From a virus (lineage: Duplodnaviria; Heunggongvirae; Uroviricota; Caudoviricetes), in IMG/VR virus record IMGVR_UViG_2651869695_000003: DNA of 64,000 bases. One strand, 5' to 3'. Of the stretch, positions 4,070-60,485 are shown piece after piece (position 1 is the stretch's first letter; every line of letters starts with the position of its first letter). The translations under genes were made by a program, and so were the position numbers. The notes under the pieces are model-generated. The model did not search any database. It was not told where the DNA came from and saw only the letters and a program-made list of their open reading frames with translations.

Positions 4070-4828
4070 ATGAAAAGAAAAAAATTAGAAGGTCCCGGGT
4101 GTGAATCATATGAAGGGTTAGATGTTGAATATTATATTGATTCCGAAACGGGGGAATTTAAAGCGGTTTATACATTCAATAATGAAATTGTAGATCGCAT
4201 AAAATTGAGTGGGCGTATTGCCGATAGAGCATCTTCACTGTCCCTAATTCATAGGGACTTAAAAAGTGCTAAAGAGTGGTACCAAATAGCTAATGAACTG
4301 GCAGGGAGAAACGAATTAAGGACAGATGGCAAGTTATACGGGAATATACTTGATCTAGATTTATCAAGTGAAATTAGAGCGTTATTTGTGGCAAGCCTAA
4401 CGTTTTATGGTAAAGCTTTCTCTGAAGCTAAAGGGAGAAAGTTAAAGATGGAGCGTGATTGGCTTGATTCTGAATATTTTGGGTTGCATGACTGTATTAT
4501 TAACTACAGGCATAATTTTGCAGCACATAGCGGCAACCAAGACTATGAGTCAGCAGAAACTTCATTGTTACTAATAAGGAAAAATGGGAAAACATTTTAT
4601 CAAGCAGTGACAGATAGAAAACAACTGAGCATGATTGGTGTCGAGGACGAGCATGTTGATATGATTAATTTATTTGAACATGCGATACAGGTTGTTGAGA
4701 AAAAATATAATGAAACATTAGAGAGAATTAGAACCTATGTCATGCAAAAGAGTTATTCTTTTTGGTGTTTAGCTGCCACAGGGAAAGATCCCGTCAATTT
4801 AGATAAGTTAAATAAGAAGAAAAAATAA
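4070..4828 (+). CDS. Hypothetical AT-rich moron protein between Rz and HNH
   Basis: 252-aa ORF from first ATG (ORF track starts at TTG 4046); low GC versus neighbours; no recognisable domain. Confidence 0.45.
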   Translation: MKRKKLEGPGCESYEGLDVEYYIDSETGEFKAVYTFNNEIVDRIKLSGRIADRASSLSLIHRDLKSAKEWYQIANELAGRNELRTDGKLYGNILDLDLSSEIRALFVASLTFYGKAFSEAKGRKLKMERDWLDSEYFGLHDCIINYRHNFAAHSGNQDYESAETSLLLIRKNGKTFYQAVTDRKQLSMIGVEDEHVDMINLFEHAIQVVEKKYNETLERIRTYVMQKSYSFWCLAATGKDPVNLDKLNKKKK

Positions 4829-4907
4829 ACCTACTCTTCACATTAGTAACATTAGTAGATGCTAAGCCACTAGCAATCGATGGTGGCTTTTTTATTGGAG
4901 CTTACCA

Positions 4908-5258
4908 ATGCCACCACGAACCCCAAAAGCCTGCCGTGTTCGCGGCTGCCGCTCTACAACCACAGACCCGTCAGGCTACTGCGAAAGCCACAAAAGCGAA
5001 GGCTGGAAGCAATACAAGCCAGGTCAGTCCCGTCATCAGCGCGGTTATGGTTCGAAGTGGGACGCTATCCGCGCGCGTGTGCTGAAGCGTGACAAAGGTT
5101 TATGTCAGTTATGTCTGCGTGCCGGTGTGGTGCGTGAGGCGAAAACCGTTGACCACATCATCCCTAAAGCGCATGGCGGCACTGATGCCGACTGTAATCT
5201 GCAGAGTCTGTGTTGGCCGTGTCATAAGGCGAAGACGGCCCGTGAACGGTTAAAGTGA
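4908..5258 (+). CDS. HNH endonuclease (terminase-associated)
   Basis: CxxC ... DHIIPKAHGGTD ... CWPCH motifs; position immediately upstream of terminase small subunit as in HK97-like phages. Confidence 0.75.
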   Translation: MPPRTPKACRVRGCRSTTTDPSGYCESHKSEGWKQYKPGQSRHQRGYGSKWDAIRARVLKRDKGLCQLCLRAGVVREAKTVDHIIPKAHGGTDADCNLQSLCWPCHKAKTARERLK

Positions 5259-54366: not shown

Positions 54367-54493
54367 TTTCATTACTGCAAATGCCCCTGCGGGGGCATTT
54401 ATGGAAACGTAATTAACTCAATAATCACCGGATGGTGAGGGCTTCCTTTTACCAGAATTCAGCGCGGTGCAGTGCATATACGTGGAGAACAAA

Positions 54494-55018
54494 ATGTCAT
54501 TTATTAGAACTTTTTCCGGGAAGCATTTTTATTATGAAAGGATAAATAAAGACGACATCGATATTAACGATATCGCGGTTTCCCTTTCAAATATCTGTCG
54601 CTTTGCCGGTCATCTTTCGCACTTCTACAGCGTCGCCCAACATGCGGTTCTTTGCAGCCAGCTGGTGCCGCAGGAATTTGCTTTTGAAGCGTTAATGCAT
54701 GATGCAACAGAAGCGTATTGCCAGGACATTCCCGCACCACTGAAACGCCTTCTTCCTGACTATAAACGAATGGAAGAAAAAATAGACGCCGTAATCCGTG
54801 AGAAATACGGGTTACCCCCGGTTATGAGTACGCCCGTGAAATATGCCGATCTCATCATGCTGGCAACCGAACGCCGCGATCTCGGGCTTGATGATGGCTC
54901 TTTCTGGCCCGTACTGGAAGGTATCCCGGCAACAGAGATGTTCAAAGTTATTCCACTGTCGCCAGGCCATACCTATGGGATGTTTATGGAACGCTTTAAA
55001 GAGTTAACTGAGTCGTAA
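54494..55018 (+). CDS. HD-domain phosphohydrolase (YfdR-like 5'-deoxynucleotidase)
   Basis: H...HD...E motifs (HFYSVAQHAV ... MHDATEAY ... D); start at internal Met. Confidence 0.55.
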   Translation: MSFIRTFSGKHFYYERINKDDIDINDIAVSLSNICRFAGHLSHFYSVAQHAVLCSQLVPQEFAFEALMHDATEAYCQDIPAPLKRLLPDYKRMEEKIDAVIREKYGLPPVMSTPVKYADLIMLATERRDLGLDDGSFWPVLEGIPATEMFKVIPLSPGHTYGMFMERFKELTES

Positions 55019-55126
55019 AAATCAGCACGTACGAATTCAAACTCTGCCATAAAAGAACATATAAGTAATTTATTAACATATAGATATAGGTTATATTACA
55101 AATTGAAAAATTATTGGAGAGCAACA

Positions 55127-55993
55127 ATGAATCAAAATCCATTCTCATTCTATGACTTTCTTGGATATTTAATACCAGGTGGTTTTTTTATCCTATTAAT
55201 GTATTTCTGTGGTTTGACATTCGATCTAGATATTGTTATTGACTTAAGTGAATTGCTCAGAGGTCAAAGTCAAATCTTTGGCATTTTGAACTACGCTTCA
55301 ATAGTTATTATATCTTATATAGCTGGACATTTTATTTCTATCACGTCAGCATTTTTTATCGAAAAATACATGAATAAAGAATTAGGATATCCTTCCAAAT
55401 ATCTATTTAAAAAATTGATAGATACCTCAGAAAGCATTTGTAGCCCATCATGCGATGAGAGAAGCGCTGATAAAAAAACAAAAATAAAGAATCGCATAAT
55501 CAAATGCGTATTATGTCCAATAATACTATGGGATTTTATAACACAAAAACTATGTTATTCTCAATCTCTACCATTTCATTTAGCTAATACAACATGGTTA
55601 ATGATCAAAGAAGGTTATGAGAAAAAGTTCATAACAAATCGCCAATTATTACAAGATAAAAACGGACTTGATGATGATCTCTTCAGATTGGCATATCATT
55701 ATGTTTATGAGTTTTCAAAACAACATCAAACAAAAATTCAAAACTATGTTGCATTATATGGTTTTTGCAGAAACATATGTTTAATCTTTATAATTTCATT
55801 TTGGGTATCAGTTCCAACCTTTATTTATCGATTATGTACTCATAGTGATTATCTTTATAGTTTACTTTCAATAATGCTTAGCTTTTTCTTCGTCTATGTC
55901 TTCTATGTTGGTTTTGTTAAATTTTATAGAAGATATACTTTAGAAGTATTAATGGCATTTGCTGTACTTCAAAGTAACGACACTATTCGTTAA
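55127..55993 (+). CDS. AT-rich multi-pass membrane protein (cargo)
   Basis: Several hydrophobic helices; GGAGA 6 nt upstream of ATG 55127; very low GC. Confidence 0.5.
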   Translation: MNQNPFSFYDFLGYLIPGGFFILLMYFCGLTFDLDIVIDLSELLRGQSQIFGILNYASIVIISYIAGHFISITSAFFIEKYMNKELGYPSKYLFKKLIDTSESICSPSCDERSADKKTKIKNRIIKCVLCPIILWDFITQKLCYSQSLPFHLANTTWLMIKEGYEKKFITNRQLLQDKNGLDDDLFRLAYHYVYEFSKQHQTKIQNYVALYGFCRNICLIFIISFWVSVPTFIYRLCTHSDYLYSLLSIMLSFFFVYVFYVGFVKFYRRYTLEVLMAFAVLQSNDTIR

Positions 55994-56034
55994 TAATGTT
56001 GCTCCCGTGTGCAGACGGGATAATGGAGAAACGT

Positions 56035-56241
56035 ATGCTGAACCTCGATTGTGTTCCTATCTCAACTTATTGCAAAGAAACTGGCGAAACTCCTGAAGCA
56101 ATAAACAAACGTGTACAGCGCGGTGTTTGGCGTGAAGGTGTTCAGGTTTTAAAGGTTGAAGGCGTTAAGGAGAGGTGGATTGATCTTAGTGAGGTTGCAA
56201 AATGGGCCAGACAAAACTGCTCAAACTACCGCGCGGCGTAA
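56035..56241 (+). CDS. Excisionase-like DNA-binding protein
   Basis: Small basic protein immediately upstream of and overlapping integrase. Confidence 0.55.
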   Translation: MLNLDCVPISTYCKETGETPEAINKRVQRGVWREGVQVLKVEGVKERWIDLSEVAKWARQNCSNYRAA

Positions 56242-57377
56242 CAATCAGGAAACACCGCCAGGGAGAAACGATCAATATAACTTTCACCTACAAAGGAGTT
56301 AGATGTCGTGAGCCACTTTCCAATCTGGAAGTAACACCAAAGAACATTAAATACGCCGAGCGTACACTCGGCGAAATCCATAATAAGATCGAAAGGGGAA
56401 CATTCATTTATGCAGAATATTTTCCCCGTTCTGCTCGTTTGAAAATTTTTGGTAATGCTGCCACTGGCAAAACGGTAAAAATGTACCTGGACGAATATCT
56501 TGAAATCTGCGAAACGAGGAAACTATCACCATCCACGATTGGTGGTTATAAAAAATGCCGGAGTGCGTTAGCCTCGCTTCACATTTGCCCTGCAAGTGAA
56601 TTAACACCAGCAACCCTGAAAGCGTGGATTCAAAGCCAAAAAACGACCTTAAAAACCATTCGCAACCAGTTATCTTTCCTGCGGTCAGCACTTGATGAAG
56701 CCGTAACCGATGGGGTACTTCAAATTAATCCCGTATCGTTAGTAACTGCTTCGCGCTACCAAAGTGATAAGTCAGAAGCAGAAAGCAGCTACGTGGTTGA
56801 TCCGCTATCACCAGCAGAAGTTGATGCATTACTAGCAGCAGCCGGAAACAAACAATGGGAGAATCTGTTCCGGTTCGCTATACATACAGGTCTGCGTAGT
56901 TCTGAATTATGTGCCCTTCGATGGCGTGATATTGACTTTGTAGGGATGACTGCCCACGTCCAGAGCGCCAGTGTTGTTGGTGTAATCAAAGGTACCAAAA
57001 CAAAAGCAGGTACTCGAAAAGTTGAACTGACAGATGAAGCAATGTCTGCACTAATAAATCAGAAACCGTTCACTTTCATGAAGGACGCGACTGTCTTTGA
57101 AGATCCAAAAACCAATAAACCTTGGGCCAGCGCAGACGCCATAAGAAAGAAGGCATGGGTGCCAACTTTACGTAAAGCCGGAGTCCGTTACCGTAATCCT
57201 TATCAAACTAGACATACATTTGCTACAAAACACATTAGTCAAGGTGTTAATTTGTTTTGGTTAGCCGCTCAAATGGGGCATAAAGGACCAGAAATGCTAT
57301 TTAGGCATTACGGCCGTTATCTTAAAGATTATGATAACAATAGCACACACAATCATTTGATAAATTGTACTAATTAA
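56202..57377 (+). CDS. Tyrosine integrase (phage integrase family)
   Basis: C-terminal catalytic region with R...HxxR...Y pattern (TRHTFATKHI ... LFRHYGRY). Confidence 0.9.
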   Translation: MGQTKLLKLPRGVTIRKHRQGETINITFTYKGVRCREPLSNLEVTPKNIKYAERTLGEIHNKIERGTFIYAEYFPRSARLKIFGNAATGKTVKMYLDEYLEICETRKLSPSTIGGYKKCRSALASLHICPASELTPATLKAWIQSQKTTLKTIRNQLSFLRSALDEAVTDGVLQINPVSLVTASRYQSDKSEAESSYVVDPLSPAEVDALLAAAGNKQWENLFRFAIHTGLRSSELCALRWRDIDFVGMTAHVQSASVVGVIKGTKTKAGTRKVELTDEAMSALINQKPFTFMKDATVFEDPKTNKPWASADAIRKKAWVPTLRKAGVRYRNPYQTRHTFATKHISQGVNLFWLAAQMGHKGPEMLFRHYGRYLKDYDNNSTHNHLINCTN

Positions 57378-57416: not shown

Positions 57417-58235
57417 ATGAATAACACAGATTTAATAAAAATGTTAGGTTACTCAATTACCACTACCGACTTCATAGCCATAATAAGTGTCATAATTGCA
57501 TTTTTTGCAATGTACCAAACATGGCAGCAAAGAATAATTTCAAACAAACCTCAAATCTTACCTAAGAATATAAAATTCACATGGATGCACAGAGATAACT
57601 TGAAATTATTTAAGAACATAGAAATATCACCAACCACTTTGAATATAGAGCTTCTCAACATAGGTCTTGGCCCAGCTATAAAAATAAACCACTACTGGTC
57701 TGAAGAGTATGAGAAATATATTAAGATAAACAAATTCAAAATAGATAATAACAACACACAAAAATCACATGAGATATTTTTGCAAAATGAAGAGTTTTTT
57801 ACAATCAAAGACAACAATAACTTCTTGAATGTTGATATTTTTGGTAGAGGTCCGCAAAAACATAATAGCTTTCAAAAAAAAGGAACTTTGATAGAATTTA
57901 TAACTCCGAATATTAAAGACAAAGAGAAAACAACCATACCATTTCCCCCATTGGTGCCGGAATTAATTGGTAATTATCTTGTAACCACCTCCATCTCATC
58001 GTTTATAGGGCCGGACCTTATCCTTGAATATAGAGATGTAAACAATAAGAAAAGAAAGAAAATTTTCACAACAGAATTTAAGAGCGTATCTTTTTACGGA
58101 AATGGCTTAGATCTAATTTTAGACATAGATATTCTTTTCACATCCAAACAGTGTTGGACACAGGTTGTCCTAGAAAGGATACGCAAAAGCTACGCAGATT
58201 TTATGGATGAGCATGATTTTAATAAAAACAGATAG
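57417..58235 (+). CDS. AT-rich hypothetical protein with N-terminal TM anchor (cargo between int and att)
   Basis: 272-aa ORF, Asn/Lys/Ile-rich, very low GC. Confidence 0.5.
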   Translation: MNNTDLIKMLGYSITTTDFIAIISVIIAFFAMYQTWQQRIISNKPQILPKNIKFTWMHRDNLKLFKNIEISPTTLNIELLNIGLGPAIKINHYWSEEYEKYIKINKFKIDNNNTQKSHEIFLQNEEFFTIKDNNNFLNVDIFGRGPQKHNSFQKKGTLIEFITPNIKDKEKTTIPFPPLVPELIGNYLVTTSISSFIGPDLILEYRDVNNKKRKKIFTTEFKSVSFYGNGLDLILDIDILFTSKQCWTQVVLERIRKSYADFMDEHDFNKNR

Positions 58236-58326: not shown

Positions 58327-58358
58327 GCCCGCACGGCGCAAGCCCTGCGGGCTTTTTT
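58327..58358 (+). terminator. Rho-independent terminator (native ssrA-downstream terminator)
   Basis: GCCCGCA...TGCGGGC hairpin followed by TTTTTT. Confidence 0.5.

Positions 58359-58540: not shown

Positions 58541-60485
<1,945 letters not shown>

Follow-up and report, generated by a model that had tools for sequence, protein, structure and literature searches.

The stretch of DNA analysed here, referred to throughout as the window, is a 64,000-nucleotide sequence from a tailed virus (Caudoviricetes; IMG/VR record IMGVR_UViG_2651869695_000003), and it carries at 55127-55993 on the plus strand an open reading frame (ORF) for a membrane protein of 288 amino acids (aa). This ORF is a real, selected gene. 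Its product is predicted to be an inner-membrane protein with four transmembrane (TM) helices, both termini in the cytoplasm and a cytoplasmic helical insert of ~125 aa. On the basis of profile comparisons we file its family as a distinct, insert-bearing, stand-alone branch that appears to be distantly related to Csx27, an accessory membrane protein belonging to type VI-B1 CRISPR-Cas. We read the protein, with somewhat less than even confidence, as a phage-exclusion or abortive-infection effector of the inner membrane, because of its remote homology, the residence of a relative in an anti-phage hotspot, the cassette-like behaviour of the gene and its base composition.

The coding sequence and its translation start are delimited by two features.
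55127-55993, plus strand: coding sequence of the 288-aa Csx27-like membrane protein (PHROG 12528; RefSeq WP_001075212.1-like, 'hypothetical protein').
55116-55119, plus strand: ribosome-binding site GGAG, 7 nt 5' of the ATG at 55127 and invariant in the upstream alignment of variants.

The program-made ORF list gives this frame as 55103-55993 (plus strand) beginning at a TTG. Counted from the in-frame ATG at 55127, the protein has exactly 288 aa up to the TAA stop codon at 55991-55993, and the spacing of the GGAG supports this ATG, already given as the start in the preliminary description of the window, as the initiation codon. That description had drawn attention to an AT-rich protein of very low GC content with multiple hydrophobic helices, and this is borne out by a GC content of 0.286 for the gene alone and by four predicted TM spans. 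GC at third codon positions (GC3) is 0.219, and GC runs at 0.26-0.31 over 54950-55999 compared with 0.43-0.50 in both flanks. Random codons drawn at the base composition of the gene would include ~8% stops, so that the chance of an open frame of 288 codons is roughly 1e-11 (both figures are our own arithmetic). The ratio of nonsynonymous to synonymous substitution rates (dN/dS) was 0.19 against a variant of 85% identity and 0.17 against one of 78% identity. These ratios, together with 593 word-indexed homologues and 951 representative clusters, identify the ORF as a real gene. As far as can be judged from sequence comparison, purifying selection and strongly conserved polar residues together show that the protein has a specific activity and is not a passive membrane anchor.

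A profile search over 1.84 billion representative sequences with a cut-off of E 0.001 recovered the 951 clusters (50% identity), 207 of them at E <=1e-30. Their members are nearly all 260-320 aa long and align end to end. The window protein matches PHROG 12528 over its full length (E 8e-174, residues 1-288 against profile positions 1-288 of 288), a family to which no function is assigned. Genome scans revealed members in more than 12 phyla, including Gamma- and Betaproteobacteria, Desulfobacterota, Campylobacterota and Bacteroidota (many of them Flavobacteriia), as well as Gemmatimonadota, Chloroflexota, Spirochaetota, Bacillota, Acholeplasmataceae, Acidobacteriota and Verrucomicrobiota. Of 5426 complete E. 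coli genomes, 205 carry an identical or near-identical gene, which is intact at >=99% identity in 176 of them. The carriers include UTI89, S88, APEC O1, IHE3034, NU14 and the E. coli type strain, and the annotation is always 'hypothetical protein'. A 78%-identical variant was found on more than 1000 Salmonella contigs, and plasmid records with a family member are rare (4).

Pfam holds no family for the window protein or for the 137 diverse family members that were aligned. A sequence-profile search of the PDB gave only chance-level matches to ITPR2 (E 0.15 or worse), and Foldseek returned nothing at E <=0.001 from the BFVD viral structures. The additional length of the longer family members comes only from inserted loops, further TM helices and low-complexity tails, and no informative domain fusion was seen. 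The gene is unannotated, and its family is without a Pfam model or a solved structural relative. For the statement in the preliminary description that no family was recognisable by eye, PHROG 12528 and a distant Csx27 relationship can now be substituted. Clear homology to a phage structural or lysis protein, which that description had named as the observation that would count against it, was looked for in Pfam, PHROG and structure searches, and none was found.

Hydropathy analysis (Kyte-Doolittle scale) revealed four hydrophobic spans at aa ~12-34, 50-78, 207-232 and 243-267, flanking a polar, K/R-rich middle region of ~125 aa. Conservation and charge were counted on the alignment of the 137 diverse sequences.
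55160-55228, plus strand: TM1, aa 12-34 by hydropathy (helix 8-31 in the structural model).
55274-55360, plus strand: TM2, aa 50-78, with invariant Y64, G67, S74 and E79 and near-invariant H68.
55364-55741, plus strand: predicted cytoplasmic helical insert, aa 80-205, without a counterpart in the 206-position Csx27 profile.
55745-55822, plus strand: TM3, aa 207-232, starting at the conserved N206-Y-V-A-L-Y-G-F-x-R215.
55853-55927, plus strand: TM4, aa 243-267, continuing into the conserved tail F263-x-K265-F-Y-R-R-x-x-L-E273-x-x-M276.

TM1 is preceded by the N-terminal signature N-P-F-S-x-Y-D-F-L-G-Y-x-x-P-G (aa 4-18), conserved at >=88-100% across the alignment, and it is this N-terminal/TM1 segment that aligns to the NCBIfam Csx27 model. 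Within the insert, Y88-P89-S90 and H191, E195, H200 and K203 are conserved, and two hydrophobic helices form a pair around P131. The motifs and residues listed here, including P131, L272-E273 and M276, stay invariant or nearly so at 27-35% identity. The family-wide net charge of the middle region is +6.5, and by charge counts and the positive-inside rule the middle region and the C-terminus are predicted to be cytoplasmic, with two short loops outside. This topology would place both termini inside and essentially all conserved polar residues at the cytoplasmic face; the periplasmic loops are short and poorly conserved. An AlphaFold model built on the 137-sequence alignment is all-helical and forms a compact single domain with a predicted local distance difference test score (pLDDT) of 90.8 and a predicted template-modelling score (pTM) of 0.89. 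In the model TM2, TM3 and TM4 continue as long helices that join those of the insert in a cytoplasmic bundle.

The only recurrent family detected among the members was Csx27. The PADLOC model of Csx27 (PDLC01605) matched the window protein with an E value of 1.4e-5, aligning residues 6-268 with profile positions 4-188 of 206, which implies an insertion of ~80 aa. The same model was matched by 97 of the 137 diverse members (best 2.2e-10), and the independent NCBIfam model CAS_Csx27 by 25 of them (best 2e-6). PADLOC v2.0.0 gave no significant match to a validated system; only Csx27 and tm_4, both accessory models of CRISPR type VI-B, were matched, and weakly. Topology prediction and profile searches, the checks proposed in the preliminary description, have yielded four TM helices, PHROG 12528 and these weak Csx27 matches. 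Csx27 itself has four predicted TM helices and is a predicted channel former (PMC7642515). The window protein shows both the profile similarity and the four-TM architecture by which the wider Csx27 family is recognised. On sequence comparison we nevertheless exclude an identity with Csx27 proper: all NCBIfam scores are far below the 65-bit equivalog cut-off, the protein is ~80 aa longer and no cas13b lies nearby. A wider Csx27 family was proposed by Makarova et al. (2019, FEMS Microbiol Lett 366:fnz088), and the partners reported there include natural-transformation machinery, multidomain proteins of the ubiquitin system and WYL-HTH proteins. Competence, ubiquitin-like and WYL genes were not among the neighbour clusters of 79 loci carrying our family, nor did their Pfam families recur in the 148 immediate neighbours.

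In its genomic context the gene acts like an exchangeable unit. It lies in the early-left/integration module of a lambdoid, CPS-53/SfV-like prophage, and its placement between a YfdR-like gene and xis-int, as noted in the preliminary description, is confirmed by its neighbours. Upstream is a YfdR-like HD-domain protein (54467-55018; YfdR-like E 3e-5), labelled yfdR 5'-deoxynucleotidase in RefSeq for UTI89. Downstream are a small ORF (55996/56035-56241), whose counterpart in Citrobacter phage phiNP is annotated as an excisionase, and a tyrosine integrase (56202-57377) with Arm-DNA-bind_2 and Phage_integrase domains.
55014-56003, plus strand: AT-rich cassette of 990 bp, GC 0.28, with homology breaks on both sides.
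55069-55097, plus strand: candidate sigma-70 promoter, TTTATT at 55069-55074 and TATATT at 55092-55097 with a 17-nt spacer.

Homology to two E. coli prophages (L164 and L165) and to phage SfV ends at 55013, five bases 5' of the yfdR stop codon, and restarts at 56004. Sibling prophages of E. coli that share yfdR and xis-int with the window (~92% nucleotide identity) have yfdS and a 71-aa ORF in this slot (610 bp, GC 0.465), and SfV, Kati and an Stx2a phage hold still other small ORFs there. By these comparisons 55014-56003 is a discrete, self-contained cassette that moves between temperate phages. About 60 nt of upstream sequence accompany the gene, also in loci with another upstream gene. The variants of 78-85% identity, among them two with such a different neighbour (L108 and L110), retain the two hexamers at unchanged spacing, and we suggest that 55069-55097 is a candidate promoter that moves with the gene; the element scores below the threshold of the consensus scan. 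A hairpin (56004-56019, CCCGT-GTGCAG-ACGGG) lies just upstream of xis, exactly where sibling homology resumes, and is kept in the sibling prophages as GCCCGTGTGCAGCGGGC. It may serve in regulation or mark a recombination junction.

A family member stands directly upstream of xis-int in at least four different backbones.
Backbone 1: CPS-53/SfV-like E. coli prophages, with the member directly upstream of xis-int.
Backbone 2: a Salmonella prophage with a minimal left arm, the member directly after the repressor gene and followed by xis-int.
Backbone 3: phages of Enterobacter and Klebsiella, in which xis is of the DUF4224 type and the integrase is another one.
Backbone 4: a Photobacterium element, with the member directly upstream of xis-int.

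The wider context was sampled in 79-80 diverse, species-level chromosomal loci, with 148 immediate neighbours. In 78 of 80 loci the gene had a lower GC content than its flanks (median difference -8.5 points, with an extreme of -27 in Pseudomonas, compared with +1.2 for control ORFs), and the same AT-richness was seen in every viral locus examined. All-against-all clustering and Pfam and PADLOC scans of the immediate neighbours found no conserved neighbour in the 79 loci, which fits a single-gene system; the 148 neighbours fell into 141 Pfam families. Occasional neighbours were integrases, glycosyltransferases, sugar-nucleotide enzymes of polysaccharide loci, subunits of type I restriction-modification systems and AbiEii-like AAA_21 ATPases. 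An upstream partner with an N-terminal TM helix, comparable to DUF4760 (see below), is not hidden in these loci (13 of 73 compared with a background of 22%). The upstream gene was on the same strand, at modest gaps, in 68 of the 73 loci on which this was counted, though the upstream genes are mutually unrelated. Roughly 70% of neighbours are expected to share a strand, and fewer same-strand upstream genes would be expected than were found.

P2-like phages have a paralogue of 42% identity (42.5% by tblastn) in the interval from portal gpQ to replication gpA. The status of this gpA-gpQ locus of P2 as a hotspot of anti-phage systems has experimental support (Rousset et al. 2022, PMC9122126). Table S5B of that paper gives 'DUF4760 (1 TM) + 4TM' as system #3, the third most abundant with 1102 occurrences, and the 4TM sequence given for it has the same motifs and length class as the window protein. 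A tblastn search with the DUF4760 protein found nothing in the window at E below 0.29; this partner is confined to P2-like loci. The DUF4760 gene is present at 99% identity, unannotated, at 4464-4958 of Escherichia phage vB_EcoM-705R2 (ON470623.1; locus L003), whose record shows a minus-strand hypothetical ORF at this position.

Collectively, these observations suggest a role in shielding the lysogen, and hence the prophage, from other phages at the cytoplasmic membrane. The polar cluster predicted at the cytoplasmic face (D10, H68, E79, H191, H200, K203, N206, R215, K265, R268 and E273) may act as a sensor or a gate. Infection would then lead to dissipation of the membrane potential, that is to abortive infection as with Csx28 and RexB. 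Alternatively, the protein could obstruct the passage of incoming phage DNA across the inner membrane, as in superinfection exclusion of the Sie type. Expression in the lysogen, anti-phage activity and a channel or blocking mechanism are all inferred. Of the two roles put forward in the preliminary description, lysogenic conversion by surface modification or exclusion, the latter has gained circumstantial support from the Csx27 kinship, the P2 hotspot paralogue and the cassette, and the former has not.

Several points weigh against an exclusion or abortive-infection effector. The NCBIfam Csx27 model (NF040557) matched the window protein at 14.9 bits (E 0.02) over the N-terminal 39 residues, compared with its cut-off of 65 bits. 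Csx27 is reported to down-regulate Cas13b (PMC11662929). System #3 is not discussed in the main text of PMC9122126, and its sequence is missing from the table of cloned systems. Searches of the literature by accession and family names found no paper that names a family member or reports an experiment on one. Only a few immediate neighbours are defence genes, and a tyrosine recombinase was found within 8 kb in only 11 of 80 chromosomal loci; enrichment in defence islands is not demonstrated. The consensus scan found no terminator-like site between yfdR, the 288-aa gene and xis, and the gene may be read within the early-left operon in lytic growth and not in the lysogen. Finally, a membrane enzyme or a transporter could have these many invariant polar residues just as well.

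A bolder form of the exclusion reading concerns the whole family, which may be a widespread single-polypeptide anti-phage system that senses and acts at the membrane, with a fold that solved structures have not yet shown, and which would itself be the free-living ancestor or a relative of Csx27. We regard this extension as possible, though doubtful.

An early-lytic accessory gene that serves the phage itself is an unlikely explanation. The gene would be expressed as part of the early-left operon (yfdP-yfdQ-yfdR, the 288-aa gene, xis and int) upon induction or infection, and its product might take part in host takeover, in counter-defence or in the control of membrane permeability, or might block re-infection of an infected cell. 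The gene shares its strand with yfdPQR and xis-int with no terminator-like site in between, its slot holds other small accessory ORFs in relatives, and the counterpart of this slot in lambdoid phages is the non-essential 'ea' region 5' of xis. The Salmonella prophage, where the gene is first after the repressor and directly before xis-int, and the same-strand upstream neighbour in 68 of 73 diverse loci also fit such a gene. These arrangements have to be set against the conserved promoter-like element, which moves with the gene despite differing upstream genes, and against the presence of the paralogue at old/tin of P2, a locus described as a hotspot of anti-phage systems. Moreover, most of the 80 chromosomal copies have no recombinase within 8 kb, so many apparently act outside the lytic programme.

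An unusually large set of polar residues predicted to lie at the cytoplasmic membrane interface is invariant or nearly so (D10, Y14, H68, S74, E79, H191, H200, K203, N206, R215, K265, R268 and E273), and could instead reflect a membrane enzyme or small-molecule transporter unrelated to phage conflict, acting for example on an inner-leaflet lipid or lipid-linked substrate and hitch-hiking on mobile elements. The compact single-domain model (pTM 0.89) would suit such a protein, as would the neighbours that are glycosyltransferases and sugar-nucleotide enzymes of polysaccharide loci. We consider this improbable: across the 137 members no enzyme or transporter family of Pfam or NCBIfam was matched, there is no conserved operon partner or pathway context, and the persistently foreign GC content and patchy distribution are atypical of housekeeping genes.

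A lysogenic-conversion factor that alters O-antigen, lipopolysaccharide (LPS) or another surface structure is very unlikely, even though the gene is integrase-proximal, as gtrABV is in SfV, and a few members adjoin glycosyltransferases. The gtr genes of SfV occupy the int-attR interval, on the far side of int from this slot. Neither the window protein nor the 137 members matched the Pfam models of GtrA, GtrB, serotype-specific Gtr, Glycos_transf_2, Oac/Acyl_transf_3, phosphoethanolamine transferases or any other glycosyl- or acyltransferase. The protein has only four TM helices, its conserved residues are predicted to face the cytoplasm, and the family extends to Bacillota and Acholeplasmataceae, which are without LPS. 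A holin or other lysis protein was also rejected, as no PHROG or Pfam holin or spanin was matched and the gene is in the early-left/integration module and not in a lysis cassette. That the frame is a chance ORF or a decaying remnant, as its very low GC and the lack of any annotation beyond 'hypothetical protein' might suggest, is practically ruled out by the chance of ~1e-11, dN/dS of 0.17-0.19, 176 intact genomes, 951 clusters and pLDDT of 90.8.

Further features were observed elsewhere in the window. A second AT-rich ORF (57417-58235, plus strand; 272 aa, GC ~0.29-0.33) with an N-terminal TM anchor lies between int and the prophage end. It belongs to phrog_7259 and has no Pfam or PADLOC match. 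Its homologues in sibling prophages are 22-30% identical, compared with ~92% nucleotide identity in the adjacent integrase region, and it is a very fast-diverging, arms-race-like gene. An obligate pairing of this ORF with the 288-aa gene was rejected, since each occurs without the other. Directly past the prophage end, after a terminator-like hairpin (58340-58354), two adjacent ORFs of 244 aa and 354 aa (58607-60406, minus strand) resemble, as judged from their translations, istB and istA of an IS21-family element; the UTI89 copy of the prophage has different genes at this position. The whole phage late/structural region is present as a perfect (100%) inverted duplication with 22.5-kb arms (1-22539 and 24227-46765). 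The 1687-bp loop between the arms holds opposed genes for a tail-fibre C-terminus and tail-fibre assembly, like an invertible segment of the Pin/Cin type. No complete E. coli genome has both arm ends with the loop (best coverage 87%), and the duplication therefore looks like an assembly fold-back at an invertible segment, not real biology.

If the 288-aa protein is an exclusion or abortive-infection effector, its gene would be among the commonest unvalidated phage-borne defence genes in Enterobacteriaceae. A function assigned to the family by cloning would annotate about a thousand protein clusters. As the closest stand-alone relative of Csx27, the protein also offers a tractable E. coli entry to the mechanism of Csx27, and should the family prove to be a single-gene system, its activity would also explain the part played by Csx27 in type VI-B systems. 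An early-lytic gene or a membrane enzyme would still represent a new fold with defined residues to mutate.

Csx27 is among the closest known systems. It shares with the window protein four predicted TM helices, a common N-terminal TM1 motif, similarity spanning TM1-TM4, and mobile or defence contexts. Csx27 is ~200 aa long without a large soluble insert, whereas the window protein has 288 aa, the ~80 additional residues being attributed to the cytoplasmic insert, and is phage-borne and alone, with no cas13b or CRISPR array nearby. The PADLOC candidate PDC-M48A is a short 4-TM protein of the P2 hotspot with a similar TM1 motif (…Y-N-I-F-N-N-L-F-P-G…); it was weakly matched by six family members and itself weakly matches Csx27. 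In contrast to the window protein, PDC-M48A is only ~160 aa long, has neither the insert nor the conserved C-terminal KFYRR…E motif and belongs to a multi-gene candidate system, and the similarity is marginal (E ~1e-3). System #3 of the P2 locus is also AT-rich cargo of temperate coliphages, and its 4TM component is a clear paralogue of the window protein, but the window gene has no DUF4760 partner, and its site is the slot before xis-int of a lambdoid prophage and not the gpA-gpQ interval.

The remaining comparisons are of function. RexB of lambda is a prophage-encoded 4-TM protein that depolarises the membrane. Csx28 of type VI-B2 also causes membrane depolarisation (bioRxiv 10.1101/2021.11.02.466367, PMC12669027). 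Both are small polytopic inner-membrane defence proteins, and they resemble the window protein by functional analogy only, as no sequence or fold similarity was detected. Csx28 and RexB need a partner sensor (Cas13b and RexA, respectively), whereas the window protein has no conserved partner. P22 SieA, T4 Imm and HK97 gp15 are phage or prophage inner-membrane proteins that act alone against incoming phage DNA, which is the kind of mechanism proposed here for the window protein. These three are without detectable homology to it, smaller and restricted to narrow phage groups, whereas the family of the window protein extends across more than 12 phyla.

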